Below, in pieces: positions 2,620-37,380 of a stretch of 37,380 nucleotides of DNA. The notes beneath the pieces are model-generated. The model was not told the origin of the DNA. It saw only the letters and a program-made list of their open reading frames with translations, and made no database searches. Within the stretch, counting starts at the first letter, position 1, and every line of letters starts with the position of its first letter. The position numbers and the translations under genes are program-made. This stretch comes from a virus (lineage: Duplodnaviria; Heunggongvirae; Uroviricota; Caudoviricetes): IMG/VR virus record IMGVR_UViG_2718218398_000011, one strand, 5' to 3'.

Positions 2620-2732
2620 AACTGAAGTTGCCCTGAAAATGAAATTTTTTTTGCACAACCGCAGAACTTTTCCGCAGGGCATCAGTCTTAATTAGTGCCA
2701 CTGCTTTTCTTTGATGTCCCCATTTTGTGGAG

Positions 2733-2775
2733 CCCATCAACCCCGCCATTTCGGTTCAAGGTTGATGGGTTTTTT
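2733..2775 (+). terminator. rho-independent terminator downstream of ybjL
   Basis: cccatcaacc ... ggttgatggg stem followed by tttttt. Confidence 0.5.
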
Positions 2776-2833
2776 GTTGCCTGAAATTTAAGCTGTTTAA
2801 AATCATGATGTTAGAAACACTGTTTTTTAACGA

Positions 2834-2855: not shown

Positions 2856-3074
2856 TCAAAGAGAGAGCGCCACCTGTCCTGATTTCATTGGATGCGGCTG
2901 AACCGGATTTGACTCTTTTGGCGTTGCAATCGAACGAACAAAAGTTTCATGGGTAACAAAAGTATGGCTGCAGTTAATGTTCTGGCACTGGTTGTAACGC
3001 TCTTTGGTCAATGAAGATACCTGAAAACTGCTGCGAGTATGGGCGGCACTTCCACACAGTGGGCAAATCATCAT
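2856..3074 (-). CDS. ogr: Ogr/Delta zinc-finger late-gene activator
   Basis: CPLC...CQNINC C4 zinc finger; 72 aa from the ATG preceded by GGGAGA; resembles P2 Ogr. The track ORF starts further upstream at 3107. Confidence 0.85.
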   Translation of the reverse strand: MMICPLCGSAAHTRSSFQVSSLTKERYNQCQNINCSHTFVTHETFVRSIATPKESNPVQPHPMKSGQVALSL

Positions 3075-3164
3075 TTTTCGAGTTCTCCCCATTTTTGCTA
3101 AATTCACAATAATGATACCGCATTATTCCATTTTGAAAACTTAAAAGTTCTCCATTGCGAAGAA

Positions 3165-10096: not shown

Positions 10097-10144
10097 AAAT
10101 AACGGTATTTGTCTGCTTGCAGGGATAATCAACATAATGCTGAT

Positions 10145-10717
10145 TCAGGGGGATTCATTGATCTTATTTGCCGGAAATTTTCTATAAATGGTAGAAACGC
10201 CTACATCAAAAATCAGTGCAATACGCTGTCTTGATTCTCCGGCCTCGAGTAAACGCCCAATCTGTGCCCACTGTTCGGTGGTCAACTTAGGACGGCGTCC
10301 ACCTACTCTGCCTTTGGCACGAGCTGCAGCCAGCCCTGCCCTGGTACGTTCAACTATCAGTTCGCGTTCCATTTCAGCCAGGGCACCCATGACATGAAAA
10401 AAGAAACGGCCCATTGGGGTACTGGTATCAATACTGTCAGTCAGGCTTCTGAAATTCACACCACGCTGGCGCAACTCTTCTATCAGCGTAACAAGATGCC
10501 GCATACTGCGCCCCAACCTGTCCAGCTTCCAGACAACCAGCGTGTCTCCTGCCGATAGTGTCCTGAGTAGTTTTTTCAGCCCCGGTCTGTCGGACTTAGT
10601 GCCACTGATTTTGTCCTCAAAAATCCGCTCACATCCCGCGCAGTTCAGTGCATTACGTTGCAAATCGGTGTTCTGGTCATTTGTTGACACGCGTACATAG
10701 CCAATAAGCATGATCAT
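10145..10717 (-). CDS. serine DNA invertase (Hin/Gin/Pin/Cin family)
   Basis: N-terminal GYVRVSTNDQ serine-recombinase motif and C-terminal HTH; 190 aa; adjacent to an inverted-repeat crossover site. Confidence 0.9.
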   Translation of the reverse strand: MIMLIGYVRVSTNDQNTDLQRNALNCAGCERIFEDKISGTKSDRPGLKKLLRTLSAGDTLVVWKLDRLGRSMRHLVTLIEELRQRGVNFRSLTDSIDTSTPMGRFFFHVMGALAEMERELIVERTRAGLAAARAKGRVGGRRPKLTTEQWAQIGRLLEAGESRQRIALIFDVGVSTIYRKFPANKINESP

Positions 10718-10766
10718 CCCCCTGAATAAAAACCGGAGATGATGCCAGTTAGCTGTTACCTCTGCA

Positions 10767-10794
10767 TTTTCTTAAACGTTGGTTTGGGAGAAGC
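10767..10794. repeat. inversion site, left (gix/hix-like)
   Basis: TTCTTAAACG-TT-GGTTTGGGAGAA; the inner half and core are the exact inverse of the site at 12623..12650. Confidence 0.6.
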
Positions 10795-11113
10795 GGCAAA
10801 ACGGAATGTGGGAACAGGGGAAAATCAGATACCTGATATGTCAGCTTATTCATCAGGATCTGGCTGGCAAAAATTGCCTGATGGTTCAATTGAACAGTGG
10901 GGAAGAATTAATTTCCCGAATAACGCCGCGGCGGTATCTACAAATGTGACTTTCACCATTCCTTTTACGCAGGAGCCAGACGTAGTGATTGTATATGACG
11001 GCGGTTTTGGTGGTGGGAATATGTGGGGCGCAACTAACTGGACGAAAACAGGTTTCGTTGCTCATTGTAACTATGGCTTTGAAGGTGGAGCCTTCTACGC
11101 GAAAGGGCGTTAA
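10781..11113 (+). CDS. alternative tail-fibre C-terminal exon (silent in this orientation)
   Basis: Open frame runs through the left site with the same GGT TTG GGA GAA (GLGE) codons as gene H at the right site; no independent start expected. Confidence 0.55.
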   Translation, partial: GLGEAAKRNVGTGENQIPDMSAYSSGSGWQKLPDGSIEQWGRINFPNNAAAVSTNVTFTIPFTQEPDVVIVYDGGFGGGNMWGATNWTKTGFVAHCNYGFEGGAFYAKGR

Positions 11114-11115
11114 TT

Positions 11116-11556
11116 ATGAAATATTTGTATGTTGATAATCTGGCGTACCCTTATGCCCTCCAGTCTGTTTACGCTGCAAAAGGCCAATGGCCCGAAGGTA
11201 AAGGCGTGGATATAGACGAAGCTATTTTCAGGGAATATTTCCATGATACGCCGCCTGACGGTAAGTACAGAATTACCGGAGACGATGGAATGCCAGCATG
11301 GGCAGATGTTCCACCGCCAACACGTGAAGAACAAATTGCATCAGCCGAAACTAAAAAGCAGCAATTGATTAATCAGGCCAACGATTATATGAACAGTAGA
11401 CAATGGGCTGGTAAAGCGGCTATTGGTCGTCTGAAAGGTGAGGAACTGGCGCAATATAATTTGTGGCTGGATTATCTGGACGCACTGGAGCTGGTCGATA
11501 CTTCCAGTGCACCAGATATTGAATGGCCTACTCCTCCGGCAGTTCAGGCCAGATGA
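11116..11556 (+). CDS. tail fibre assembly protein (alternative)
   Basis: 146 aa; C-terminus (WLDYLDAL...APDIEWP) resembles the Tfa on the opposite strand. Confidence 0.7.
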   Translation: MKYLYVDNLAYPYALQSVYAAKGQWPEGKGVDIDEAIFREYFHDTPPDGKYRITGDDGMPAWADVPPPTREEQIASAETKKQQLINQANDYMNSRQWAGKAAIGRLKGEELAQYNLWLDYLDALELVDTSSAPDIEWPTPPAVQAR

Positions 11557-12130
11557 CATCCGGCGCGGTGCTGATATCTGTTGCCGTCACCGCGTCAATG
11601 TAATCCAGCACAGCGTTAAGCCGGGTTGTTTCTGCCTGCGTCAGTTTCCGCCCGGCCTGTAATTTCAGTTGAATCAGACTAATGGAAGCCATTGCAGTAT
11701 CAATCAGTGACTGACGCTGTGCTTCTGCCGCGTCTACTGCGGCGCGATGCTGTGCCTCAGTATCGGTCACCCATTTCTCACCATCCCATTTATCGTATGG
11801 CGTTAATGGGGCGATAGTGGTTGTATTTTCGGGGTAATCACCCGGAGTTGTGATTTCTTTGGTGTCTCCCGTTTCGGTGTTATAGACGATTTCACCGCGA
11901 TGGTCTGGCACATATTCCCATGAGTTTAAATCTGCCGAACGGCAGATTGCATAACCAGCCTTATGTATACCAGGTTCATCCAGACAGGAATATGCCGGGA
12001 TACCAACACCAACGGCAAGATATTCATTTGAAGTGGAAATATATTCCCGAGTTTCACCATCATAGCTATAGACGGTAATATTCCCCGCCTTCGTGGCAAT
12101 AAGCTCGCTATTTAATACAGCGTTATCCAT
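11528..12130 (-). CDS. tail fibre assembly protein
   Basis: 200 aa, directly downstream of H; conserved Tfa C-terminus (LDYIDAV...APDVIWP). Confidence 0.8.
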   Translation of the reverse strand: MDNAVLNSELIATKAGNITVYSYDGETREYISTSNEYLAVGVGIPAYSCLDEPGIHKAGYAICRSADLNSWEYVPDHRGEIVYNTETGDTKEITTPGDYPENTTTIAPLTPYDKWDGEKWVTDTEAQHRAAVDAAEAQRQSLIDTAMASISLIQLKLQAGRKLTQAETTRLNAVLDYIDAVTATDISTAPDVIWPELPEE

Positions 12131-13686
12131 TATGCAGCTCTCACAATATAATTAAATGACGTATTACGTGGTCGTACTGATATCCATGCACTATAAAAAC
12201 CGTCTTCTGCTGTTCTCTGCGTTCCCGTAATGGAGTTATCAGACGAAGCTGGAACATAGTTACTGCTGTCGCCAGCTTTAGAATTAGCAGGTATCCCGCT
12301 TGTTTGTACTTTATCGGCGGAAGCAAATGCTATCCCCACCTTGACAGAGGTTGTTGTATCAACCCCGTAATAATCCTGTAACGCTGTACGAATAAAAGTT
12401 GCATCCTGACCACTGAGTAGTGATCGTCCACTGTCTACACCGCGTCCATCATCCCAGCCACGAATAAACTCACCGCGTAAATCAGGCAATTTATTTGTCG
12501 GGTAAGCCTTTGCCAGTTCCGGGTATTCTTCAGCAGAAAAAGCTGCACCATTGCATTTCAACCAGCCTGTCGGTGGTGTAGCTGAAGGCCACGGAACAGG
12601 CACACCAACCGGTAATGCTGAACCTTCTCCCAAACCAAGGTATGCGAGAAGACCAGCAACATCCTTTCCACTCAAATTAGTCAGCGTATTGTCCAGCGGT
12701 TGTTTACCTGCCAGTGCATTAAGCATTGTCGTGGCAAAGTTCGGGTCATTCCCCAGCGCCGCCGCCAGTTCGTTCAGTGTATCCAGTGCCGCAGGTGCAG
12801 AACCCACCATTGCCGCAATCGCCGATTTCACAAATGCCGTGGTGGCAATCTGTGTATTGTTGACCGACTGTGCCGCAGTCGGTGCGGTTGGCGTTCCGGT
12901 GAGTGCCGGACTCGACAGCGGCGCTTTCAGTGCCAGCGCATTGTTAATGGTGGTACTGAATTTCGGATCATTGTTAATGGCTACGGCTATTTCTTTCAGC
13001 GTGTCCAGCGTGGCTGGCGCATCATTAATAAGAGCCGTCAGTGCCGCCTGAACAAATGCGGTGGTCGCAACCTGCGTGGTGTTATTCCCCGTCGCTGGCG
13101 TTGGCGCTTTGGGTGTCCCGGTAAACGTAGGACTTTCTTTGGCTGCATACTGTGAATGCGGGTCCGGTGCGGCAAGATGTTTTGCCATCTGATCATCCGC
13201 GTACACCTTCAGCTCCAGTGCCTTGTCATCCACATACTTGCGGGTTGCCAGCACTACAGCAGGGTCGATTTTCAGGGTGATATTGTCCGTGCTGCTGGTA
13301 ATCAGCACCATGCGCACGGTCTGGGTACGCCCGCTGCCTTCAGCCAGTTGCGGCTTATAGCTTTCCGGGCAGTTGCCCACGGCAATCAATGCCCCTGACT
13401 CATCAAACAGGCCCACTTCACGTATCCACCAACCGCCCTCGTTTTCAGGGATCACCTGTTCAGCAATAATCTGGCTGCTGTTCTGTGGGTCGATATAGAG
13501 CATATTCAGCGCAGCCCGACGTTTCTCATTTACCAGTGCACTCTGCTTTGCGTCCGGCGTCGGCAATGTTCCGCCACCATCGCCCACCGCCATATGGGTA
13601 ATTTTTAGCGGCACACCGAGCGCGGCGGCGCTGGCAAGTTTCGCCGCGCCAATATCCGTCAGCAGGGTATAAAATTTTGTGCTCAT
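12130..13686 (-). CDS. H: tail fibre protein H (constant N-terminus plus currently fused variable C-terminus)
   Basis: 518 aa, P2 gpH-like N-terminus with repeat-rich shaft; the inversion site lies inside the codons for LGLGEG. Confidence 0.9.
   Translation of the reverse strand: MSTKFYTLLTDIGAAKLASAAALGVPLKITHMAVGDGGGTLPTPDAKQSALVNEKRRAALNMLYIDPQNSSQIIAEQVIPENEGGWWIREVGLFDESGALIAVGNCPESYKPQLAEGSGRTQTVRMVLITSSTDNITLKIDPAVVLATRKYVDDKALELKVYADDQMAKHLAAPDPHSQYAAKESPTFTGTPKAPTPATGNNTTQVATTAFVQAALTALINDAPATLDTLKEIAVAINNDPKFSTTINNALALKAPLSSPALTGTPTAPTAAQSVNNTQIATTAFVKSAIAAMVGSAPAALDTLNELAAALGNDPNFATTMLNALAGKQPLDNTLTNLSGKDVAGLLAYLGLGEGSALPVGVPVPWPSATPPTGWLKCNGAAFSAEEYPELAKAYPTNKLPDLRGEFIRGWDDGRGVDSGRSLLSGQDATFIRTALQDYYGVDTTTSVKVGIAFASADKVQTSGIPANSKAGDSSNYVPASSDNSITGTQRTAEDGFYSAWISVRPRNTSFNYIVRAA
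12623..12650. repeat. inversion site, right (gix/hix-like), inside gene H
   Basis: TTCTCCCAAACC-AA-GGTATGCGAGAA; the inner half is the reverse complement of the left site's inner half. Confidence 0.6.
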
Positions 13687-22128: not shown

Positions 22129-23895
22129 ATGAACACCACACTGACACCCGCAGATCTCGATCCCCGTCGGCAGGCCATGCTGCTGTACTTTCAGGGATAC
22201 CGCGTCGCCCGCATTGCTGAAATGCTGGGCGAGAAAGTTGCAACCGTTCACAGCTGGAAAAAACGCGACAAGTGGGGTGACTATGGGCCGCTGGATCAGA
22301 TGCAGCTCACCACCGCCGCACGCTACTGCCAGCTCATTATGAAGGAGCACAAAGAAGGGAAAGATTTCAAAGAGATTGACCTGCTGGCGCGCCAGTCTGA
22401 GCGCCACGCGCGGATCGGCAAGTTTAACAATGGCGGCAACGAAGCTGACTTAAACCCTAACGTCGCCAACCGCAACAAAGGCCCGCGCCGTCAGCCGGAA
22501 AAGAATGTCTTCACCGATGAACAGATTGAGAAGCTGGAAGAAATCTTCCATTCCTCCATGTTCAACTACCAGCGCCACTGGTGGGAAGCCGGAAAAACCA
22601 ACCGCATCCGCAACCTGCTGAAGTCACGCCAGATCGGCGCGACCTTTTACTTTGCCCGTGAAGCCCTGATTGACGCCCTGCTTACCGGACGTAACCAGAT
22701 TTTCCTTTCCGCCAGTAAGGCACAGGCCCACGTCTTTAAGCAGTACATCATCGACTTCGCCAAAGAAGTGGATGTGGAACTGAAAGGCGATCCGATGGTG
22801 CTTCCTAACGGGGCCACGCTTTACTTCCTCGGCACCAATGCCCGCACGGCCCAGAGTTATCACGGCAACCTGTATCTGGATGAATATTTCTGGATACCGA
22901 AATTTCAGGAGCTACGCAAAGTGGCTTCCGGTATGGCTATTCACAAGAAATGGCGGCAGACCTATTTTTCCACACCATCCAGCCTGACCCACAGTGCTTA
23001 TCCGTTCTGGTCCGGTGCGCTGTTCAACCGTGGACGCAACAAAGCCGACAAGGTGGACATTGATCTGTCCCACAGCAATCTGGCCCCCGGCCTGCTGTGC
23101 GCTGACGGGCAATACCGCCAGATAGTCACCGTGGAAGATGCGGTGCGCGGTGGCTGTAACCTGTTCGACCTTGACCAGTTGCGCATGGAATACAGCCCGG
23201 ACGAATACCAGAACCTGCTGATGTGCGAGTTTGTGGACGATCTCGCGTCCGTGTTCCCGCTCAGCGAACTACAGGCGTGCATGGTGGACAGCTGGGAAGT
23301 CTGGACCGACTTTCATGCACTGGCGCTGCGCCCGTTTGGCTGGCGCGAAGTGTGGATCGGTTATGACCCGGCAAAAGGTACGCAGAACGGCGACAGCGCC
23401 GGATGCGTGGTGGTGGCACCGCCAGCCGTGCCGGGCGGTAAGTTCCGCATTCTTGAGCGTCACCAGTGGCGCGGGATGGACTTCCGCGCCCAGGCTGACG
23501 CCATCAAAAAACTGACTGAACAGTACAACGTGACATACATCGGTATCGACTCAACCGGCGTCGGTCACGGGGTTTACGAGAACGTGAAAGCGTTTTTTCC
23601 TGCCGTCCGGGAGTTTGTCTACAACCCCAACGTTAAAAATGCCCTGGTACTCAAGGCCTACGACATTATCAGTCACCGCCGTCTGGAGTTTGACGCCGGA
23701 CACACCGACATAGCGCAGTCATTTATGGCAATCCGTCGCGCCACCACCGCCAGCGGCAACCGCCCGACCTATGAAGCCAGCCGCAGCGAAGAAGCCAGCC
23801 ATGCCGATCTGGCGTGGGCAACAATGCACGCACTGTTTAACGAACCGCTGCAGGGCGAGTCCGCCAATACCAGCAATATTGTGGAGATTTTTTGA
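22129..23895 (+). CDS. P: terminase ATPase (large) subunit P
   Basis: 588 aa, P2 gpP-like. Confidence 0.9.
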   Translation: MNTTLTPADLDPRRQAMLLYFQGYRVARIAEMLGEKVATVHSWKKRDKWGDYGPLDQMQLTTAARYCQLIMKEHKEGKDFKEIDLLARQSERHARIGKFNNGGNEADLNPNVANRNKGPRRQPEKNVFTDEQIEKLEEIFHSSMFNYQRHWWEAGKTNRIRNLLKSRQIGATFYFAREALIDALLTGRNQIFLSASKAQAHVFKQYIIDFAKEVDVELKGDPMVLPNGATLYFLGTNARTAQSYHGNLYLDEYFWIPKFQELRKVASGMAIHKKWRQTYFSTPSSLTHSAYPFWSGALFNRGRNKADKVDIDLSHSNLAPGLLCADGQYRQIVTVEDAVRGGCNLFDLDQLRMEYSPDEYQNLLMCEFVDDLASVFPLSELQACMVDSWEVWTDFHALALRPFGWREVWIGYDPAKGTQNGDSAGCVVVAPPAVPGGKFRILERHQWRGMDFRAQADAIKKLTEQYNVTYIGIDSTGVGHGVYENVKAFFPAVREFVYNPNVKNALVLKAYDIISHRRLEFDAGHTDIAQSFMAIRRATTASGNRPTYEASRSEEASHADLAWATMHALFNEPLQGESANTSNIVEIF

Positions 23896-24923
23896 TGGGA
23901 AAGAGTAAGAAGAACCGCGCTGTGTCGACGAACCAGATTCAGCACAAAAGCCAGACTTCAGCCGAAGCATTCAGCTTTGGCGATCCCGTTCCTGTTCTGG
24001 ACCGCCGCGAACTGCTGGACTATGTAGAATGCGTACAGACAGATCGCTGGTATGAGCCGCCAGTGAGTTTTGACGGACTGGCGCGAACCTTCCGCGCTGC
24101 CGTGCATCACAGTTCACCAATTGCGGTGAAATGCAACATTCTGACCAGTACCTACATCCCTCACCCGCTTCTCAGCCAGCAGGCTTTTTCACGTTTTGTG
24201 CAGGACTATCTGGTATTTGGTAACGCTTACCTGGAGAAACGCACGAACCGGTTCGGTGAAGTTATCGCCCTTGAGCCTGCTCTGGCAAAATACACCCGAC
24301 GTGGGTTAGACCTGGATACCTACTGGTTTGTGCAATACGGTATGACAACCCAGCCGTATCAGTTCACGAAAGGCAGCATTTTTCATCTGATGGAGCCGGA
24401 CATCAACCAGGAGATCTACGGCCTGCCCGGCTATCTTTCTGCCATTCCATCCGCCCTGCTCAACGAGTCCGCCACGCTGTTCCGCCGTAAGTATTACATC
24501 AACGGCAGCCATGCAGGCTTCATCATGTACATGACCGACGCCGCGCAGAATCAGGAGGATGTGAACAACCTCCGCAACGCGATGAAAAGTGCCAAAGGTC
24601 CAGGCAACTTCCGCAACCTGTTTATGTACTCGCCTAACGGCAAAAAAGACGGGCTTCAGATCATCCCATTGTCAGAAGTCGCGGCGAAGGATGAATTTCT
24701 TAACATCAAGAACGTAAGTCGGGATGACATGATGGCGGCGCATCGTGTGCCGCCGCAGATGATGGGGATAATGCCAAACAATGTTGGGGGGTTTGGGGAT
24801 ATAGAAAAAGCCAGTTGCGTTTTTGTGCGAAATGAGTTAACTCCTTTACAAAAAAGACTTGTAGAAATTAATATTTGGCTAAAGAAAAAAATAATAGCCT
24901 TCAAAGATTATTCATTGAATTAG
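23892..24923 (+). CDS. Q: portal protein Q
   Basis: 343 aa, P2 gpQ-like; the last ~30 codons are AT-rich. Confidence 0.9.
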   Translation: MMGKSKKNRAVSTNQIQHKSQTSAEAFSFGDPVPVLDRRELLDYVECVQTDRWYEPPVSFDGLARTFRAAVHHSSPIAVKCNILTSTYIPHPLLSQQAFSRFVQDYLVFGNAYLEKRTNRFGEVIALEPALAKYTRRGLDLDTYWFVQYGMTTQPYQFTKGSIFHLMEPDINQEIYGLPGYLSAIPSALLNESATLFRRKYYINGSHAGFIMYMTDAAQNQEDVNNLRNAMKSAKGPGNFRNLFMYSPNGKKDGLQIIPLSEVAAKDEFLNIKNVSRDDMMAAHRVPPQMMGIMPNNVGGFGDIEKASCVFVRNELTPLQKRLVEINIWLKKKIIAFKDYSLN

Positions 24924-24934
24924 ATAAAATGTGT

Positions 24935-24952
24935 GGGGGATGAAAATCCCCC
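24935..24952. terminator. hairpin between convergent Q and the KAP NTPase gene
   Basis: gggggat-gaaa-atccccc, a 7-bp G/C stem with a GAAA loop in a 35-bp intergenic gap. Confidence 0.4.
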
Positions 24953-24957
24953 CCAAA

Positions 24958-26610
24958 TTACAAATACCGTCTAACACGTATTTTATTAATGCTCGACTCA
25001 TTTCCAATTCTTATCAAAGCATTTCTCGCTTTTTCTCCGATGCGTTTCATTCTTTCTGAACCATTGCTATACCCACCAAACTTAAGAGCAGTAGCTATTA
25101 TTGAATCACCACCATCAAGAATGACTTTTTTAAATAAATCATAGTAGTCATCCTCTGAGGCAGCATCCAATATTTCCTCGTGCCTATCAGACCAACCATT
25201 CTGACTTGATAATTTTATTAGAACATCCTTTATAGAACCATCCAGATTTAAAGTAGTAGAATAATCTTGGATTTTTGACTTTAACTCAGCATCTTTTATA
25301 GGATGAACATTCATGTAAATAGATTGAACATATTCCTTAAGAGCATCATTGCCGTAATTAATAAATTTACTTATTAATTCACTTGCTTTAATATTTTCAC
25401 CTAAATCTCTATACAGTCCGACAACACTATCCAAGTCACTTGGAGTTACATACTCTATCCCACCAACCACCGCTTGATATAGATTATCAATAACCTGATT
25501 TCGGTTATCTTCAAATGAATTATAGAAAAGCTTCCATGCTTCAAACAGTGAACCTCGCTTACTATCACGGATAAGTTCATCATTCCTTAGACTTACTTGC
25601 CTTTGGAAATTGTTCATATCAATATATCCATGCCTTACCATGTCTATAAGGACTTCATCAAGTTCGTTTGTTTTTTTATAATCATATATAAGCAAAGTAT
25701 TAAGCCATTTTTTTTCTTTTCCATCCTCTTTTTCATCACGCATATAGATATTTCTCATATTTCTAATATACTCCAATGATGGTACATCTCCATCTGGAGT
25801 AAATGCGTAATGACTCCAACAATACAAAGTTAAGGAGTGTGCGACTTCATTTGCAATTTTTTCAAAATTAACGTTAATGCCAGGTAACAAGGCTAGCAAA
25901 AACCGCTCTATTTTTTTCAGTATCCTAATATTCTTAATACCCAGGGAAATGGAGTATTTGCTTAATAATTTATGAACATCAGAATTATTTTTATATGCTA
26001 TAACTGCACATTCTTCTGGAGTAGGATTATAGGTAATCTCTCTATCAATAACCTTTTCTTTATAAGTGGAGTAGTCATCCATACCACTTGTCCCGTTATT
26101 AAGTAAAAGAACCACCTTACAATTTTTTTGTTCTTTCAATAAAGAAACCAACCCTAAGACATCTTTCACTTCTAAATTTTTACCACGTCTTTCTAAGTCA
26201 TCTATGACTACAATAACATTAGTAATTGACATAAATGACATTGACTCAAGTGTCGTAGTGAAATTTTTCAAAAAAGGTGTATCTTTTAACACACGAGCGG
26301 TCTTTCTAGTGCAGGATTCAAGAAGCCCCTTTGCATTTTGTGTTGCTGTTTTTAAATTAGGTTTGTTTCCAATGAAATCTTTCGTAATTGTATTTTCAAA
26401 GATGGAGTATTTTAATGCGTCCAATGAATTAACACCAAAAAGAGAGACGTAACTATATCTATTAAATGCAATCTTATTTTTATTTTCCTTTAAGAAAGCA
26501 TTCCAAGTATAGGTTTTCCCAATCCCCCACTCACCCTGAATAGCCATTACCTCAGGTTCTGCAGATGAAATAAAGTCTGACAACTGTTCTTTAATATAGT
26601 CTAATGACAT
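24958..26610 (-). CDS. KAP-family P-loop NTPase (cargo; candidate anti-phage protein)
   Basis: Walker A GEWGIGKT and Walker B VVIDDLERR in KAP-type arrangement; start placed at MSLDYIKEQL, which has GGAGA six nt upstream (track ORF starts at 26640); strongly AT-rich. Confidence 0.7.
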   Translation of the reverse strand: MSLDYIKEQLSDFISSAEPEVMAIQGEWGIGKTYTWNAFLKENKNKIAFNRYSYVSLFGVNSLDALKYSIFENTITKDFIGNKPNLKTATQNAKGLLESCTRKTARVLKDTPFLKNFTTTLESMSFMSITNVIVVIDDLERRGKNLEVKDVLGLVSLLKEQKNCKVVLLLNNGTSGMDDYSTYKEKVIDREITYNPTPEECAVIAYKNNSDVHKLLSKYSISLGIKNIRILKKIERFLLALLPGINVNFEKIANEVAHSLTLYCWSHYAFTPDGDVPSLEYIRNMRNIYMRDEKEDGKEKKWLNTLLIYDYKKTNELDEVLIDMVRHGYIDMNNFQRQVSLRNDELIRDSKRGSLFEAWKLFYNSFEDNRNQVIDNLYQAVVGGIEYVTPSDLDSVVGLYRDLGENIKASELISKFINYGNDALKEYVQSIYMNVHPIKDAELKSKIQDYSTTLNLDGSIKDVLIKLSSQNGWSDRHEEILDAASEDDYYDLFKKVILDGGDSIIATALKFGGYSNGSERMKRIGEKARNALIRIGNESSINKIRVRRYL

Positions 26611-26670
26611 GTACATTCTCCGAGATAGATAGTCATCCATATTATAACCCGAGTACTATCAAAGTAATAA

Positions 26671-26696
26671 GCGCGCGCTCGTATCCCCGCCACGCC
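26671..26696 (-). other. candidate cos site (cohesive-end region)
   Basis: Minus strand reads GGCGTGGCGGGGATACGAG CGCGCGC, resembling the P2/186 cohesive end as I remember it (GGCG[A/T]GGCGGGGAAAGCA.. followed by GCGCGC); a G-rich block in an AT-rich island at the expected map position. Confidence 0.4.
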
Positions 26697-27039
26697 TGCC
26701 CGCTTTATGTAGTGGTTTTCATGCACCTGCACGACATAAGCAAAAGCACGCCAGTTCTGGCTGGCCTCAGCAAAAACGATCCTCTAACGATCATGCGATC
26801 TCATGCGTCATAGTCATGCACAGCCAAGGGAAGCGTAAATCCGTATCTGAATGACCGCTGAAAAGCTAATCATACGGGTTTACAAAGATGAAAGTCCGCT
26901 GTGAGCGAAAAGCGGATATTCCCATTGTTTTATCTTGATCTAGTAAAAACAATACCCCCTTTACAAACAAAAATAATGAGTTACTATTTTCAGCTCCTTT
27001 TAACCCAAAGGTTTATAATTAAAAAGGAATGGCATACCG

Positions 27040-27693
27040 ATGAGTAAATACAAACTTTTCGCACAGCTATCAAGATATTCACTTGAAGCGCAGATTGATG
27101 ATTTCGAAAAATATATCCTAGGAGCAGGCGGCCAAAACAGAGTTGACTTAGCGGAATTAAAAAAAGCATATGAAGATGAAAAAAAGAATGCTCCTGACGA
27201 TTATATTAATTACTTAGAAGACTATTATTCAGAGCAATATGATTTCTTAGTTAACATACAACCAAATATTTTTAATAAATCTGCTTTGGTATCTTTATAC
27301 TCATGCTTAGAGCACAACCTAAACGACTATTGCAATATATGTCAAAGGATTGTAAACACCAATATATCAGTAACCGATTTTAATGGTGATGGCATCCACA
27401 AAGCAAAAAGATATTTAACAAAATTAATGGATATAAACTTTGGCCTGTCACAAGAGTGGCAATTCATGACAGAGTTTAACAAAGTAAGGAATTGCATAGT
27501 TCATGCTAATGGAGACATTAAAAAAATGAGCACAGCTGTAGCCTTAAAAAATATCATTGATAAAACACCTACTCTTTCATTAAACAATGAAAATAATATA
27601 ATAATCTCCTTAAATTATTTAAAAGATACTATCACAAAAATTAGAAAACTCTTTCAATGGTTATATACACATCTGGATCAATCATCGAAATGA
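27040..27693 (+). CDS. hypothetical protein with HEPN-like RNxxxH motif (cargo; candidate abortive-infection RNase)
   Basis: 217 aa; EFNKVRNCIVHANG at residues about 146-158 fits the Rx4-6H HEPN signature; AAGGAA ribosome-binding site; AT-rich. Confidence 0.5.
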   Translation: MSKYKLFAQLSRYSLEAQIDDFEKYILGAGGQNRVDLAELKKAYEDEKKNAPDDYINYLEDYYSEQYDFLVNIQPNIFNKSALVSLYSCLEHNLNDYCNICQRIVNTNISVTDFNGDGIHKAKRYLTKLMDINFGLSQEWQFMTEFNKVRNCIVHANGDIKKMSTAVALKNIIDKTPTLSLNNENNIIISLNYLKDTITKIRKLFQWLYTHLDQSSK

Positions 27694-27793
27694 ATACGAT
27701 AACATCTCAGTTTGTTATTGGTCTATTTTTGAAAACAGCTATCGATGATATTAGTCTGTTCTTCGTCAATTAATATGCAATCCATTCATGACA

Positions 27794-27815
27794 CAGGGCT
27801 GCTGTTACAGCCCTG
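27794..27815. terminator. hairpin between the convergent HEPN-like and Abi_C-like genes
   Basis: cagggctg-ctgtta-cagccctg, a perfect 8-bp stem. Confidence 0.35.
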
Positions 27816-27942
27816 ACAACCTTAGACTTCAATCGATTCAGAGATCTCTAACGCATCATCACCCGTTGAACTCACAGCGATAAGTAGACGCTGGCGGCAA
27901 CACAGAAGTGTAGCGGGAATTTGAACCACATAATTTGGTTTG

Positions 27943-28809
27943 TTAGATGGCTTTGCTTCGATATTCAATTTCTAAAATCGCCTTTGTCATTGCCGCAATA
28001 GTTATAGCTTCTACCATAGTCAATTCAGGCTTGTTCAAGCTTCCGTGTCCAGCAGTAGGTAATTTGTTGCGTAAATCATAAATATCTTTAACAGCATCAA
28101 TAAGATTCTTAGGTAATTTTGACATTTTTTCGAACTGTTTAAAAAAACCACCCAATGACTCATTTGCCACATTCGGGTTTTGAGTGATTTCCTTAGCCAT
28201 AGTTTCTAAAATATTAGAGGCTGCGTGCAGTGCACCTGCCGGATCATTATTATCCAAGCAATTATTCATTCTATCTATTTGCTGAACGATATTTGGGTGC
28301 AATCTTTTTAAGTAATCACTAGCCAATTCTTCATTAAAATTTTTGACACTTTCAAAAACATCGCAATCTAAATAAAATTTAGGATTGACTGACATCCATG
28401 TATATTTCCAATCATTTTCTAAATTATCTTTTTCCGCAATACGCCTGCCAGTGTCCTGATCTATCTCATCAACATATTTACACATATAATCGGCGTAGTA
28501 GTGTAAATATCTAAATGATATTTCTGGGCAAAAATTACTAACTGATGCAAGGCCGCCATATTCTTTTGTAGTAACTGTAGGGACTTCTTCATCACATAAA
28601 GATGAGAAAGTGGTTCTTTCCCAAAATTCGCCCAACTCTTTTTCTTTCCTAGTTGCCATACCAGCTATCACATTGATGCTTGAGAGCAAAACTACACTCT
28701 GATAGTATCGAGGACATCTGTATGAACTAGCATATGGGCATATTGATGATGCTTTACGATTAATACGCTCTTTTTCCCACCAATTTTTATCAGGAATAAT
28801 TCTTTGCAT
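27943..28809 (-). CDS. hypothetical protein with Abi_C-like C-terminal domain (cargo; candidate abortive-infection protein)
   Basis: 288 aa; the C-terminal ~100 aa (ALHAASNILETMAKEI ... DLRNKLPTAGHGS ... ITIAAMTKAILE) resemble the Abi_C/HEPN-type domain as I recall it; AT-rich. Confidence 0.45.
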   Translation of the reverse strand: MQRIIPDKNWWEKERINRKASSICPYASSYRCPRYYQSVVLLSSINVIAGMATRKEKELGEFWERTTFSSLCDEEVPTVTTKEYGGLASVSNFCPEISFRYLHYYADYMCKYVDEIDQDTGRRIAEKDNLENDWKYTWMSVNPKFYLDCDVFESVKNFNEELASDYLKRLHPNIVQQIDRMNNCLDNNDPAGALHAASNILETMAKEITQNPNVANESLGGFFKQFEKMSKLPKNLIDAVKDIYDLRNKLPTAGHGSLNKPELTMVEAITIAAMTKAILEIEYRSKAI

Positions 28810-29297
28810 AATTTAGCTACTATCTCACGAGTGAATGAATGTTTAGCCTTCTGCACAGTTTATCAGTTCCGGCATGCCTACTGCTACCCCACTGATTCAA
28901 CTTCAAGTTATGAGTTAAAGCGATTCGGTTTCGCTAGATGACACACTAGTGTTAATTTATGGATAAAAATTTATCACTTAAAATTAACTAATGCCTGTTG
29001 CGACCAAAAGTGTGCTGGAATATTATTTTCGTCTGACCTATTATCAAGCTAATTATCCAAATTAGAGTTACTCTCATTCATCAGCAACAAATAAATACAC
29101 CTGTTCACTTTCTCAAAGTGTTCCTGTTTTATTTTTAAAGCAAACAACGCCGCCTATTCGTCCGAATGTACAACAAACATCAGGTTCTGACACAAAGTGG
29201 ACGATCACTTATCAAAATGACCGCCCACCTTACACCTCATTTCACTCGTTGCCCAAACTCCCCCCAACAGGATAAATCCTCTTGGGGGCAACGTTTC

Positions 29298-29531
29298 TTA
29301 ATGCAGCCAGCTGTCGTCTTCCCACACCTTCTGCATAATTTTCATCACTTGTTTTCTTTCTTCATCCAGTTGCAGTCCGGTCAGTTCCACACCGTTAGAG
29401 CTACCTTTACGGATACGAATTACCGTTTTTGGATACAGGGGGCGCAGATTGCGGTAAAGCTCGGATTCAAGGGCGTCCAGGGTAGACTGGCTAATCTTCT
29501 GCTCTTTATCGATCATTATTTCAATGCGCAT
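29298..29531 (-). CDS. DinI-family protein (Tum C-terminal-like; SOS-induced)
   Basis: 77 aa from MRIEIMIDKEQ...; DinI-like throughout (RIEI..., ...VWEDDSWL). The track ORF starts at 29603 and overlaps the upstream gene. Confidence 0.8.
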   Translation of the reverse strand: MRIEIMIDKEQKISQSTLDALESELYRNLRPLYPKTVIRIRKGSSNGVELTGLQLDEERKQVMKIMQKVWEDDSWLH

Positions 29532-29541
29532 AAAAGTCACC

Positions 29542-29730
29542 TCAACTGATGACATCCATTGAGCGGTTGTATTCGTGGGTTCTGATCTTTGCCATGAGTT
29601 CATCAGTCAATTCAGAAACCCACTGCAGAGCCAGCCCCTTCTCTTCATCACTACACTCACTAGCCGCTACAAGCTTAAGAAAAAAATCAATGCGCTGGAG
29701 CTTCAAAGACTCCAAAAAATAGTCCTGCAT
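29542..29730 (-). CDS. small SOS-operon protein (possible Tum N-terminal-like antirepressor part)
   Basis: 62 aa from the ATG preceded by AGGAGG; first gene downstream of the LexA box. The track ORF starts at 29832, upstream of the box. Confidence 0.5.
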   Translation of the reverse strand: MQDYFLESLKLQRIDFFLKLVAASECSDEEKGLALQWVSELTDELMAKIRTHEYNRSMDVIS

Positions 29731-29773: not shown

Positions 29774-29789
29774 CTGTTTATATTTACAG
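29774..29789. promoter_or_regulatory. LexA (SOS) box
   Basis: CTGTTTATATTTACAG, a perfect CTGT-N8-ACAG with AT-rich spacer, overlapping a promoter-like region upstream of the small ORF and DinI-like gene. Confidence 0.75.
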
Positions 29790-34040: not shown

Positions 34041-34265
34041 CTATCGTTCTTTGTTCTTACGGTAACGCTCAAGAGGAGATACATTTTTTCGTATCGTCTC
34101 TTTAACCTGCTCTCCCCGTAAAAACGTCCCATCCTTTAACGCGAAAAAGTAACTGCCATCGCCCGACAATGACGGATAGCAACAGAGCAAATCATCTTCA
34201 GGTACTGAATAACTCTCCCCTCTGTAACGAAACTGATAAACCACTTCACTTTCTGCCGCATACAT
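34041..34265 (-). CDS. hypothetical small early protein (fil/dhr position)
   Basis: 74-aa ORF; overlaps a second ORF (34136..34432) in another frame, so the true gene is uncertain. Confidence 0.4.
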   Translation of the reverse strand: MYAAESEVVYQFRYRGESYSVPEDDLLCCYPSLSGDGSYFFALKDGTFLRGEQVKETIRKNVSPLERYRKNKER

Positions 34266-34439
34266 TTGGACTTTCTCCGTTTCCTCGTGGTCAATTCAGA
34301 CAGCAATTCATCTTGTGAATGACATGGATGCCAGCGTTTTCCATCCTCACCCGTGATCCAGCCGTGACCGTAGTGCATTGCCGGGCTTTGTTTTACCAGC
34401 AGCGATGCAAATGATGGTTCTTTCGTCAGCATAAGCACC

Positions 34440-34958
34440 TCACAGCAAACCGAATGAAGCACCGAGGCCAGTCACGGTATCAACTGCACTCGCCATCGCA
34501 GGGTTAGCCTGTAAACGGGCCTGCAATGAAACAGCAGCCAACGCCATCAGTCGTGTTACAGAGTTAATGCTGCTGATAGCATCACGACGACCTGCACTGG
34601 TTTTTACATCGCCAGATACCGCACCTGCAGCAACACGCCCGATCTCTGCGGTTGCACTCATGACGTAATGTGGCAGTTTCTCTTTTGCCACCTCATTAAT
34701 TGGTACGCATGGCAGGCAGTGAATCTGTGCCAGAAAACCATCTACCAACGTTGAATCTTCAGTCAGATCGGTAAGCAGCCAGATTTCTGGTGCGGTTAAT
34801 AAATGAGGTTGAGCTGGGTTCAGCTTGTTCCGCAGAATCTGCACATTCATGCCCGCACGTTCTGCCAGTTGCACCAGATTGTGGCGCAGTGCGAATGCAC
34901 GACAGGCTTCATCAAAATGTGGATGTTTGGAAACTTGGTAATCAAACATGGTTTTCAA
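34440..34958 (-). CDS. cII: CII-like transcriptional activator (phage 186 type); could instead be a P2 B-like protein
   Basis: 172 aa; N-terminus ([23 protein letters not shown]...) matches my recollection of 186 CII; sits directly after the apl/cox-like gene. Confidence 0.6.
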
Positions 34959-35013
34959 CTCCGAACTTATCGCAAAATCGAACTCAGCGTCTTATTGCGA
35001 AAATAGACGTCTA

Positions 35014-35217
35014 TTAAGCAGACAAAGCATCAACAGTCAGAGCAGCCAGGTTAATCATTACCTTTTCACGTTTTTTGTCTTTACGAAGACGATGACGAGG
35101 TAGTCGGCCATCAGCCAACATGTCGTTAATCGTATCAATAGAAAGGCCAGTCAGTTCGCTATAACGTTCGATTGTGACATGTGGTGTATTCAGAGTAATT
35201 GAAATGTTAGGTGTCAT
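35014..35217 (-). CDS. Apl/Cox-like small DNA-binding protein (excisionase/repressor of the lysogenic promoter)
   Basis: 67-aa basic protein, first gene of the leftward early operon, divergent from cI. Confidence 0.5.
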
Positions 35218-35362
35218 AAGGCAACATTCCTTCTAGATATGGCTTGTGGCGAGCCGTTGTTTGTCGTGATTAGTAGTGAAGGCTCCAAAAGAACACTTCT
35301 GGTTCAACTTTAAGATCGCTTTTGGAATCTGTCAACGAATTTTGGATTTCTTTGGAGGACTT
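35218..35362. promoter_or_regulatory. immunity switch region (early and lysogenic promoters and operators)
   Basis: 145-bp gap between the divergent apl/cox-like and cI genes; inferred from position only. Confidence 0.5.
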
Positions 35363-35932
35363 GTGGATTTCAATAGCGGCGGTAAGAAAGCCATAGAACG
35401 TTTAGTTGAAGCATATGGGTTCGGTACCCGTCAGGCTCTCTGTGATCATTTAGGTGTTTCTAAGAGCACCATGGCAACGCGCTATATGCGTGATATTTTT
35501 CCAGCAGATTGGGTAATCCAGTGCGCCCTTGAAACGGGCACCTCGCTTAATTGGCTAACAACAGGGCATGGTTCAAAGCAAGCATCAGCAAATACAAATA
35601 CTATAGAAGTAGAAAAATATTTATTGTCTGATGGAGCATTGCAGAAAGACGGTTTTTATATTTTTGATAAGGAATTTCTACCCTCTACGTTTAAAAAACC
35701 TTTTGTCATCACAGATAACAATTCTGAATTTATTTGTGATAAAGAATTTGATGATATACGTGATGGTAAATGGGTAATAAGTATTGATGGCGAAATAACG
35801 ATCCGTGACATTACTCGTTTACCCGGTGGAAGAATCTTCGTCGAGGGTGGAAACAGAGCCTTCGAATGCAAGATAGAAGACATTGAAATAATTGGTAAAA
35901 TTATAAGTTTAACAGTCAAGTATGTTAAATAG
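35363..35932 (+). CDS. cI: CI immunity repressor (phage 186 type)
   Basis: In-frame GTG at about 35363 preceded by GGAGG; LVEAYGFGTRQALCDHLGVS...CALETGTSLNWLTTGHG resembles the 186 CI N-terminal domain. The track ORF starts at 35276. Confidence 0.8.
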   Translation: MDFNSGGKKAIERLVEAYGFGTRQALCDHLGVSKSTMATRYMRDIFPADWVIQCALETGTSLNWLTTGHGSKQASANTNTIEVEKYLLSDGALQKDGFYIFDKEFLPSTFKKPFVITDNNSEFICDKEFDDIRDGKWVISIDGEITIRDITRLPGGRIFVEGGNRAFECKIEDIEIIGKIISLTVKYVK

Positions 35933-35947
35933 TACCGGGAGGAAACT

Positions 35948-36139
35948 ATGCTTGGTAAGGTATTTTTTGTGGTTTTGTCATGTTCTTTGTTATTAAACCC
36001 ACTAACTACCTATGCTAGAAATTATCCCTGCTCAGGGAAAAAGGGAGGTGTTTCTCACTGTACCTCAGATGGCAAATTCGTTTGCAATGATGGAACTATT
36101 AGTAAATCCAAAAAAATCTGTACTAAAAACTCACGATAA
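35948..36139 (+). CDS. small secreted Cys-rich peptide (moron between cI and int)
   Basis: 63 aa; signal peptide [23 protein letters not shown] followed by a ~40-aa mature region with four Cys; AT-rich. Confidence 0.5.
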
Positions 36140-36327
36140 CTTTTGCTTTTATATCTGCGTCTAAAATAAAAATGAGCCGCAGGTTAACCGCAAAAGTTAC
36201 ATGCTCACATAGCAAAAAGAATAGCCAACTTCATTATGGCTTCAGTGAGATGTATGGTCGTAGGATTTCATACATTGACACTGGTTATACATACAGTAAA
36301 AATGCTCTCTACTGGAGGGCATTTTTT

Positions 36328-37380
36328 ATGGCAGTACGAAAACTCACCACAGGGAAATGGCTTTGCGAATGTTACCCCGCCGGACGTAGTGGGCGTCGTG
36401 TGCGTAAACAATTCGCCACCAAAGGCGAAGCTCTGGCTTTTGAGCGCCACACGATGGAAGAAACCGAAGCAAAGCCCTGGCTGGGTGAATCAGTGGATCG
36501 TCGAACACTGAAAGACGTAGTTGAGCTATGGTTCAAACTACATGGTAAATCTCTAACCGCTGGGCAGCATGTCTATGACAAATTGCTGTTGATGGTTGAC
36601 GCTCTGGGCAATCCCCTTGCAACCGATCTCACATCTAAAATGTTTGCCCACTATCGAGATAAACGCCTGACGGGTGAGATCTACTTCAGCGAGAAATGGA
36701 AAAAAGGAGCAAGCCCAGTCACTATTAACCTGGAGCAAAGCTATCTTAGTAGTGTTTTTAGCGAACTATCCCGCCTGGGCGAATGGTCGTATCCGAACCC
36801 ACTGGAGAACATGCGAAAATTCACCATCGCAGAAAAAGAGATGGCATGGCTTACCCATGAGCAGATTGTTGAATTGCTGGCTGATTGTAAACGTCAGGAC
36901 CCAATTCTGGCACTGGTAGTTAAGATATGCTTAAGCACTGGCGCACGCTGGCGTGAAGCCGTAAATCTTACCCGCTCACAGGTGACCAAATACCGAATTA
37001 CCTTTGTAAGAACGAAGGGGAAGAAAAACAGAAGCATCCCTATCAGTAAAGAGCTTTACGAAGAGATCATGGCGCTTGATGGGTTCAATTTCTTCACAGA
37101 CTGTTATTTTCAATTTTTATCCGTGATGGAAAAAACGTCTATCGTGCTCCCTCGCGGTCAACTCACACACGTTCTGCGCCATACGTTTGCGGCGCACTTC
37201 ATGATGTCGGGTGGAAACATTCTGGCCTTACAAAAAATTCTCGGACACCACGATATAAAAATGACTATGCGTTACGCACATCTGGCACCGGATCATCTGG
37301 AAACGGCGCTTCGTTTCAATCCTCTGGCAACGCTGCCAAGTGGCGACAAAGTGGCGGCAGCGGTTGGCATTACCCCGTAA
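36328..37380 (+). CDS. int: tyrosine integrase (P2/186 family)
   Basis: Start at MAVRKLTTGKW with GGAGGG upstream (track ORF starts at 36172); TGARWREA box and HVLRHTFAAHF...MRYAHL catalytic region; the stop is the last codon of the window. Confidence 0.9.
   Translation: MAVRKLTTGKWLCECYPAGRSGRRVRKQFATKGEALAFERHTMEETEAKPWLGESVDRRTLKDVVELWFKLHGKSLTAGQHVYDKLLLMVDALGNPLATDLTSKMFAHYRDKRLTGEIYFSEKWKKGASPVTINLEQSYLSSVFSELSRLGEWSYPNPLENMRKFTIAEKEMAWLTHEQIVELLADCKRQDPILALVVKICLSTGARWREAVNLTRSQVTKYRITFVRTKGKKNRSIPISKELYEEIMALDGFNFFTDCYFQFLSVMEKTSIVLPRGQLTHVLRHTFAAHFMMSGGNILALQKILGHHDIKMTMRYAHLAPDHLETALRFNPLATLPSGDKVAAAVGITP
37341..37362 (+). repeat. candidate attR core, inside the int 3' end
   Basis: tggcgacaaagtggcggcagcg, matching 2834..2855 at 21 of 22 positions in direct orientation. 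Confidence 0.5.

Follow-up and report, generated by a model that had tools for sequence, protein, structure and literature searches.

Exchange at repressor domain boundaries is familiar in temperate phages beyond the P2/186 family. In the P2-type switch, a C repressor of ~99 amino acids (aa) binds direct repeats and is paired with Cox, without cII or tum. In phage 186, the CI repressor uses three operators spaced two helical turns apart at the position of the promoter pR (PMC3675496), and in DuoHS, a prophage of Escherichia coli HS, induction by mitomycin C needs both a cleavable LexA and tum (PMC12055606). Among 31 P2-like phages surveyed in 2011, no regulatory region was a P2/186 chimera and recombination was noted only between close relatives; intragenic junctions were not looked at (PMC3448106). 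Here we analysed the immunity region at positions 34440-35932 of a viral DNA stretch of 37,380 nucleotides (nt) (IMG/VR record IMGVR_UViG_2718218398_000011; the whole stretch is hereafter called the window). This region is very probably the lysis/lysogeny switch of an intact Peduoviridae (P2/186-family) E. coli prophage that lies between rybB/ybjL and rcdA and is a close sibling of DuoHS. Its repressor gene, cI, is demonstrably a recombinant, in which one swappable cassette is made up of the AT-rich end of cI and the small gene downstream.

A 186-type immunity region

Coordinates refer to the whole window, onto which calls of the Prokaryotic Genome Annotation Pipeline (PGAP) were transferred from a 100% identical copy in E. 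coli strain 4314. The region 34440-35932 comprises cII, an apl/cox-like gene and cI, the three genes of the original prediction, which had described a 186-type immunity region from the letters of the DNA. The arrangement is that of phage 186, with fil on the left and a ydcA-like gene and int on the right:

34136-34432, minus strand: fil, 98 aa, 186 Fil family (Pfam Phage_186_Fil, E 9e-23; PGAP)
34440-34949, minus strand: cII, 169 aa, ATG start (Pfam Phage_CP76, E 3e-42; PGAP 'phage regulatory CII family protein')
35014-35217, minus strand: apl/cox-like gene, 67 aa, first in the lytic operon (phrog_575 'Cox-like excisionase and repressor', E 1e-29)
35363-35932, plus strand: cI, 189 aa, GTG start, 186-type immunity repressor (Pfam, PGAP, alignment of relatives and PDB match)
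35948-36139, plus strand: ydcA-like gene, 63 aa (NF007463, phrog_6000; PGAP 'YdcA family protein')
36328-37380, plus strand: int, tyrosine integrase, 350 aa (family matches and PGAP)

Gene order and orientations are the same as in 186, and the lytic operon runs from apl (Cox-like) through cII (CP76 family) to fil, as in a 186-type switch. CII is 69% identical to 186 CII, in line with its predicted 186-like character, and Fil is 61% identical to its 186 counterpart. The apl/cox-like protein also gives a weak match to the excisionase domain TIGR01764 and is labelled hypothetical by PGAP.

CI has the same two domains as 186 CI. Its N-terminal domain (NTD) matches Pfam Phage_CI_repr (PF07022, E 3e-31, 107.9 bits against a cut-off of 22) and aligns to 186 CI residues 10-70 in PDB 2FJR, and its C-terminal domain (CTD) matches Pfam Phage_CI_C (PF16452, E 4e-29). 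Both domains are covered by matches to solved 186 CI structures (2FJR, E 4e-32; 2FKD, the 186 CI CTD, E 3e-15). The original prediction had credited only the N-terminus of the repressor with likeness to 186 CI. That likeness is borne out (39% identity in the NTD), but its restriction to the N-terminus is not, as the CTD is also of the 186 type, though very diverged (28%). Identity is 32% over the whole protein and 25% for Apl, and on these values the window phage is almost certainly heteroimmune to 186. Many CI homologues (P0046-P0056 and P0071-P0098) are longer versions of this repressor: at 290-327 aa, they have PF20432 or PF18024 as an additional N-terminal domain ahead of the two CI domains.

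Further differences from 186 concern the cI start codon (ATG in 186, GTG in the window), the attachment site (ileY in 186, beside rybB in the window) and the space between cI and int, which holds a cargo gene in the window but is lacking in 186, with the cI stop overlapping the start of int. The comparison with both immunity types places the window with 186 and not with P2, given its 189-aa two-domain CI, its cII and its tum-like locus. The structural genes are of the P2/186 kind. The proposed combination of a 186 switch with a P2-type structural backbone is therefore true but unremarkable, since 186 itself has P2-type structural genes.

DuoHS is closer still (PMC12055606). It occupies the same integration site, is collinear with the window at 96-98% DNA identity over the structural and replication genes, shares 104 of 114 CTD residues of CI and has the same ydcA-like slot. 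It differs in its apl gene (73 aa), in its promoter/operator DNA and in CI residues 2-50, of which only 37 of 49 are identical; this amounts to a different 'imm' cassette, with bounds at ~34950 and ~35510. The cargo in the island between gpA and gpQ also differs.

The cI gene is a recombinant

We compared the region with 5426 complete E. coli genomes by megablast and examined representatives of each match class. Matches were either full-length, present only from ~35390 or 35408 onward, or present only up to 35538 or 35556. The prophage of strain A30 is ~94-100% identical to the window from 33600 to ~35500, 80% identical in the 35500-35549 bin and ~45-50% identical thereafter, which is the random level. 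MIN6 and 50EVAW are 96-100% identical up to 34950, 44-78% identical over 34950-35500, which takes in apl, the promoter region and codons 1-50 of cI, then 96-100% identical again from ~35500 to the end of int. In a triplet test over 35200-35940, confined to sites where A30 and MIN6 differ, the window agreed with A30 at 99 sites and with MIN6 at 0 to the left of 35503; to the right, it agreed with MIN6 at 181 of 190 sites and with A30 at the other 9 (Fisher P 1.7e-67). Two features describe the result:

35503..35527: recombination junction in cI, codons ~47-55, encoding PADWVIQCA (triplet test, sliding identity and alignment)
~35539..36267, plus strand: AT-rich exchangeable cassette that holds the linker and C-terminal oligomerisation domain of CI, followed by the ydcA-like gene and the spacer up to int

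The region thus consists of two exchangeable units. The first, from 34950 to ~35510, comprises apl, the promoters and operators, and CI residues 1 to ~50. The second, AT-rich unit, at ~35539-36267, comprises CI residues ~59 onward and any cargo before int. The segment left unmatched by BLAST spans 35539-36267 against A30 and 35573-36268 against the relative N44. Two unrelated replacements therefore share the same right edge, 36268/36269, ~60 base pairs (bp) before int. In A30 the replacement is 2.9 kb long and carries a hypothetical gene, an N-acetyltransferase (GNAT) gene and an ASCH-domain gene; in N44 it carries a KAP-family NTPase. The cassette has a GC content of 0.34, and the replacing cargo DNA of 0.32 (A30) and 0.34 (N44). 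The crossovers fall in the conserved coding stretch for WVIQCALETG...WL.TG.G at the end of the DNA-binding domain, probably because no other DNA near the hypervariable CTD is well conserved.

Base composition changes close to this junction, and the AT-rich C-terminal half of cI and the following gene stand out as predicted. Codons 1-70 of cI have a GC content of 0.48 (0.41 at third codon positions, GC3), and the remainder of the gene 0.325 (GC3 0.25). The maximum-likelihood change point within cI is 35590, and codon shuffling of cI gave as strong a step in only 8 of 1000 trials. The AT-rich block extends across the 63-aa ydcA-like gene and ends at a second change point, ~36304, just before int at 36328. 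For comparison, GC content is 0.504 in the whole window, 0.354 in the ydcA-like gene, 0.367 in the spacer before int and 0.484 in int. A GC profile, the check that had been proposed, is thus far from uniform, and the BLAST boundaries of the cassette coincide with the change points 35590 and 36304. The original prediction of a recombination junction inside cI was right in substance. It had placed that junction by the AT-rich half of the gene; the junction indeed lies inside cI, but ~70 bp upstream of the GC step. The codons in between (LETGTSLNWLTTGHG) encode conserved protein sequence, and PADWVIQCA at the junction is itself conserved across relatives, even in 186.

An explanation without recombination would attribute both the GC drop and the divergence of the CTD to faster evolution and a different amino-acid and codon make-up of the oligomerisation domain. 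Every CTD allele examined is AT-rich whatever its sequence, CTDs are much more diverged than NTDs across 110 homologues, and identity in the NTD correlates positively with that in the CTD (r = 0.51), all of which such an explanation would accommodate. Differences in rate, however, cannot produce triplet counts of 99:0 followed by 9:181. Identity to A30 falls from ~98-100% to the random level within ~40 bp, with the opposite sense against MIN6; GC3 falls along with total GC; and two unrelated replacement cassettes end at 36268/36269. At the cI locus, the explanation without recombination is effectively refuted, and cI is best read as a recombinant gene.

The 3' portion of the ydcA-like gene with the spacer that follows (36015-36200) recurs at 100% identity in strain AH21, beside an EAL-domain gene and without the cI part. 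This copy may be a prophage remnant.

Domain combinations and frequency among E. coli genomes

The whole 1-kb stretch is present at ≥99% identity in 76 of the 5426 E. coli genomes. The sources of the identical segment (at least 76 complete genomes) include horses, cattle, dogs, humans and river water. The module of promoters and NTD occurs in 151 of the 5426 genomes and the CTD in 630. The region is otherwise ordinary and has already been annotated in hundreds of genomes.

Among 110 CI representatives drawn from a large protein collection, mean pairwise identity is 81% in the NTD and 40% in the CTD, and conservation falls sharply at ~residue 70. The NTD cluster of the window is paired with 19 CTD clusters, and its CTD cluster with two NTD clusters. 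Five pairs of NTD clusters each have a CTD cluster in common, and a four-gamete test on the clustered domains gave no strict violations at the chosen thresholds. A protein search with the CI NTD by itself returned truncated fragments alone, and the full-length CI query was used for the counts of domain combinations.

The cI start codon

The open reading frame (ORF) of cI contains two in-frame GTG codons, at 35276 (218 aa) and 35363 (189 aa). The evidence favours GTG 35363, which agrees with the GTG start first proposed. PGAP places the start at 35363 in the identical prophage, and in the four aligned prophages this column reads GTG (window), GTG (A30), ATG (MIN6) and TTG (N44), with GGAG 4-6 nt ahead of it in all four. 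Initiation at 35276 would extend the N-terminus and yield a repressor of 218 aa. The reading frame is indeed open from there, and both PGAP and JGI annotate the long form in some genomes (for example, homologue P0040). This start is nevertheless unlikely. MIN6 has its ATG at the 35363 column with mostly unrelated DNA upstream, most CI homologues are 186-189 aa long, and the alignment of 186 CI to the window repressor begins at 35363. In addition, the best pR-like promoter (35335..35307) falls between the two GTG codons, as in 186, and would be within the extension. We therefore keep the 189-aa CI starting at 35363.

Promoters and candidate operators

Five candidate regulatory features were located around apl and the start of cI:

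35307..35335, minus strand: pR-like promoter, TTGACA-17-TAAAGT, 10/12 matches in a promoter scan, facing pL
35199..35227, plus strand: pL-like promoter, TTGAAA-17-CAACAT, placed by position (apl start codon compared with 186 pL)
34922..34949: putative CII-binding and pE region at the 5' end of cII, positional equivalent of the 186 CII site 23435-23462
35320..35370, plus strand: three TTTTGGAWTY-like repeats, with spacings of 20 and 21 bp, across pR and the start of cI; possible CI operators
35002..35015: AATAGACGTCTATT, a perfect 14-bp palindrome located at the stop codon of apl, where 186 has its FR operator

Promoter-like hexamers lie at distances equivalent to those in 186. The pR-like promoter lies ~83 nt upstream of apl and is separated from the start of cI by 28 bp; in the annotated 186 record, the pR -35 element sits 15-20 bp from the cI start. 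The pL-like site falls under the threshold of the promoter scan. All four aligned prophages conserve its sequence, but it overlaps the ribosome-binding site and N-terminus of apl. By these positions, pR and pL would overlap convergently by roughly 66 bp. The first 28 bp of cII share 24/28 bases with the 186 CII-binding site, as read by eye.

To look for operators, we searched for repeats and for palindromes (the latter in both the window and MIN6), compared k-mers between pR, pB and the flanking zones, and looked for further copies of the 14-bp palindrome. Tandem Repeats Finder returned nothing in this search, and operators of the 186 type, ATTCAC-N5-GTGAAT, were not found. TTTTGGAWTY-like matches occur eight times across the window, with three clustered at pR and the cI start. 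The phased copies at pR are a weak lead to candidate CI operators; no distal sites matching them were found (186 FL and FR lie ~300 bp away). The palindrome AATAGACGTCTATT is unique in the window and cannot be assigned as a CI site because no similar site was found at pR.

An imperfect inverted repeat at 35583-35633, at the linker/CTD boundary of cI, has 17-nt arms that are 76% complementary and 17 nt apart. It is recognisable in MIN6 with other arm bases (~82% by eye). It lies near the position of the 186 FL operator, and no related sequence was found at pR.

Predicted SOS induction and the Tum-like locus

A repressor that cleaves itself in the manner of LexA or lambda CI was considered and rejected, because the match of CI to Peptidase_S24 (16.1 bits) is under the cut-off of 23.3. 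The original prediction had inferred SOS inducibility alone; the window adds a locus, to the left of the immunity region, to which it can be attached:

29774..29789: LexA box CTGTTTATATTTACAG upstream of the Tum-like operon, the sole perfect CTGT-N8-ACAG in the window
29542..29730, minus strand: 62-aa ORF located where 186 has the N-terminal part of Tum (phrog_698)
29298..29531, minus strand: DinI-like ORF, 77 aa (Pfam DinI, E 1e-22), equivalent of the C-terminal half of 186 Tum

The LexA box is kept in A30, MIN6 and N44 and lies downstream of the replication gene, like p95-tum in 186, where a LexA box and the DinI-like C-terminal part of Tum likewise follow gene A. The DinI-like ORF shares 41% identity with residues 71-145 of 186 Tum and matches positions 71-148 of the 151-position Tum-type profile phrog_189. 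The 62-aa ORF is called by PGAP in four relatives. Its likeness to Tum residues ~10-50 was seen by eye only, and BLAST against 186 Tum returned nothing significant. Tum in 186 is a single protein of 146 aa, whereas the locus here is split into the 62-aa and 77-aa ORFs, each with a Shine-Dalgarno sequence. A30, MIN6, N44 and E. coli HS share this split. In HS the DinI-like protein is identical and the 62-aa protein differs at one residue. Together, the perfect LexA box and a Tum-like locus near-identical to that of DuoHS make the predicted inducibility plausible, and by analogy with DuoHS, SOS induction of the window prophage is a well-grounded inference.

A30, MIN6 and N44 carry near-identical copies of the Tum-like pair with its promoter, although the CI CTDs of these prophages are only 28-36% identical.

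Could the immunity region be a decayed remnant, with a non-working chimeric repressor in a cryptic prophage? The repressor is a natural chimera, Tum is divided between two ORFs compared with 186, and Fil is longer than in 186, as such a remnant might display. This reading is very unlikely, given that every ORF is intact, that the identical 1-kb segment recurs in at least 76 complete genomes of varied sources, and that the prophage is 96-98% collinear with the inducible and infectious DuoHS, all structural genes included (PMC12055606). DuoHS, moreover, has the same split Tum. The evidence points instead to the switch of an intact prophage.

Neighbouring genes and other features of the prophage

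The last 5 kb of the window form the early and immunity end of the prophage, and the window ends at the integrase stop codon. In identical prophages, rcdA is the next host gene beyond int. At the other end, the host genes grxA, ybjC and ybjL and the small RNA gene rybB fill positions 1-2778. rybB (2700-2778, plus strand; Rfam RF00110, 105 bits) adjoins the left end of the prophage and is followed by an ogr/B-like gene at ~2856-3080 (minus strand). Phage 186 integrates at the end of a tRNA gene, and the attachment site here may similarly overlap the 3' end of rybB. Rfam and tRNA scans of the immunity region gave no matches.

The ydcA-like gene is cargo carried in the lysogenic operon. Its product scores 115.8 bits against NCBIfam NF007463, above the equivalog cut-off of 93; it is cysteine-rich and has a hydrophobic, signal-peptide-like N-terminus. 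On the lytic side, Fil has 98 aa here and 75 aa in 186, and the 3' end of fil overlaps by 130 nt a 74-aa ORF (34041-34265, phrog_4312) that is uncalled by PGAP. This ORF lies at the position of 186 dhr, and its similarity to 186 Dhr was undetectable.

An AT-rich cargo island at 24881-29300, between the portal gene and the tum-like locus, is absent or different in E. coli HS and is the counterpart of the gpA-gpQ defence hotspot known from P2-like phages. It encodes a 560-aa KAP-family P-loop NTPase (24958-26640, minus strand), a 217-aa ORF (27040-27693, plus strand) and a 288-aa ORF with a weak Abi_C match (27943-28809, minus strand). The tail-fibre region, 10128-13223, is divergent between the window and the E. 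coli HS prophage, which are otherwise 97% identical; this suggests a different host-range cassette.

Discussion

The homology with phage 186 suggests how the switch would work. CI would bind DNA through its N-terminal helix-turn-helix domain and oligomerise through its CTD, repressing the leftward lytic promoter pR, which would face a weak rightward lysogenic promoter, pL. From pR, apl, cII, fil and the replication genes would be expressed. CII would activate pE at the apl/cII junction, so that lysogeny is established, and pL would drive cI, the ydcA-like gene and int. Induction would proceed through the LexA-repressed, Tum-like antirepressor locus 5.6 kb to the left, and not through self-cleavage of the repressor.

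Several points weigh against this reading or limit it. The search gave no confident CI operators, and nothing like the 186 FL/FR or pB sites. pL is a positional guess whose -10 hexamer has 3/6 matches. With Tum split in two, the antirepressor could be either ORF or both, and the DuoHS paper does not specify which tum ORF was deleted (PMC12055606). For the exchange, neither its direction nor the parental lineage can be inferred from these data. The 110 CI representatives are the top matches to the window CI, which inflates the conservation of the NTD relative to that of the CTD. Low GC is common to the three unrelated CTD alleles, all that were examined (A30 0.36, N44 0.36), and a weaker drop is seen in 186 CI (0.48 versus 0.43). 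The GC step is accordingly a trait of the family that carries no date stamp, and composition by itself is suggestive, without proving recent exchange.

The exchange resembles that of lambdoid imm regions and of the diverse CI repressors of Stx phages (PMC8951638) in being bounded within the repressor gene near a domain boundary, with short conserved coding stretches as crossover sites. It differs in that the 186-type CTD builds a wheel of seven dimers and is not a LexA-like cleavable domain, and in that the CTD of the window travels with cargo of the lysogenic operon. P2-like prophages have a known variable cargo or defence slot between repressor and integrase, and the cI-int slot of the window is likewise variable (ydcA-like gene here, KAP NTPase in N44, GNAT and ASCH genes in A30). 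Neither the earlier description of this hotspot nor the 2011 survey puts a boundary inside the repressor gene; here the left edge lies in cI, and the repressor CTD consequently belongs to the variable unit.

We tentatively suggest a more general possibility. In this CI subfamily, the oligomerisation domain may be hypervariable and horizontally exchanged, coupled to lysogenic cargo in an AT-rich cassette with fixed boundaries, and the DNA-binding domain conserved. A Tum-like inducer that is near-identical across prophages with CTDs of ~30% identity would then have to act on the conserved NTD. If so, CTD diversification might be driven by incompatibility of repressor wheels between co-resident prophages, or by escape from the antirepressors of satellites or competitors; alternatively, the CTDs might simply hitch-hike with their cargo. 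Nature provides pairs with the same NTD and unrelated CTDs (window and A30) and with the same CTD and a different immunity cassette (window and MIN6/DuoHS). Such pairs could show which domain Tum targets and whether the repressor wheels of different prophages mix. For P2-like prophages, the map of this minor cargo and defence slot is refined, with its left edge inside the repressor gene.

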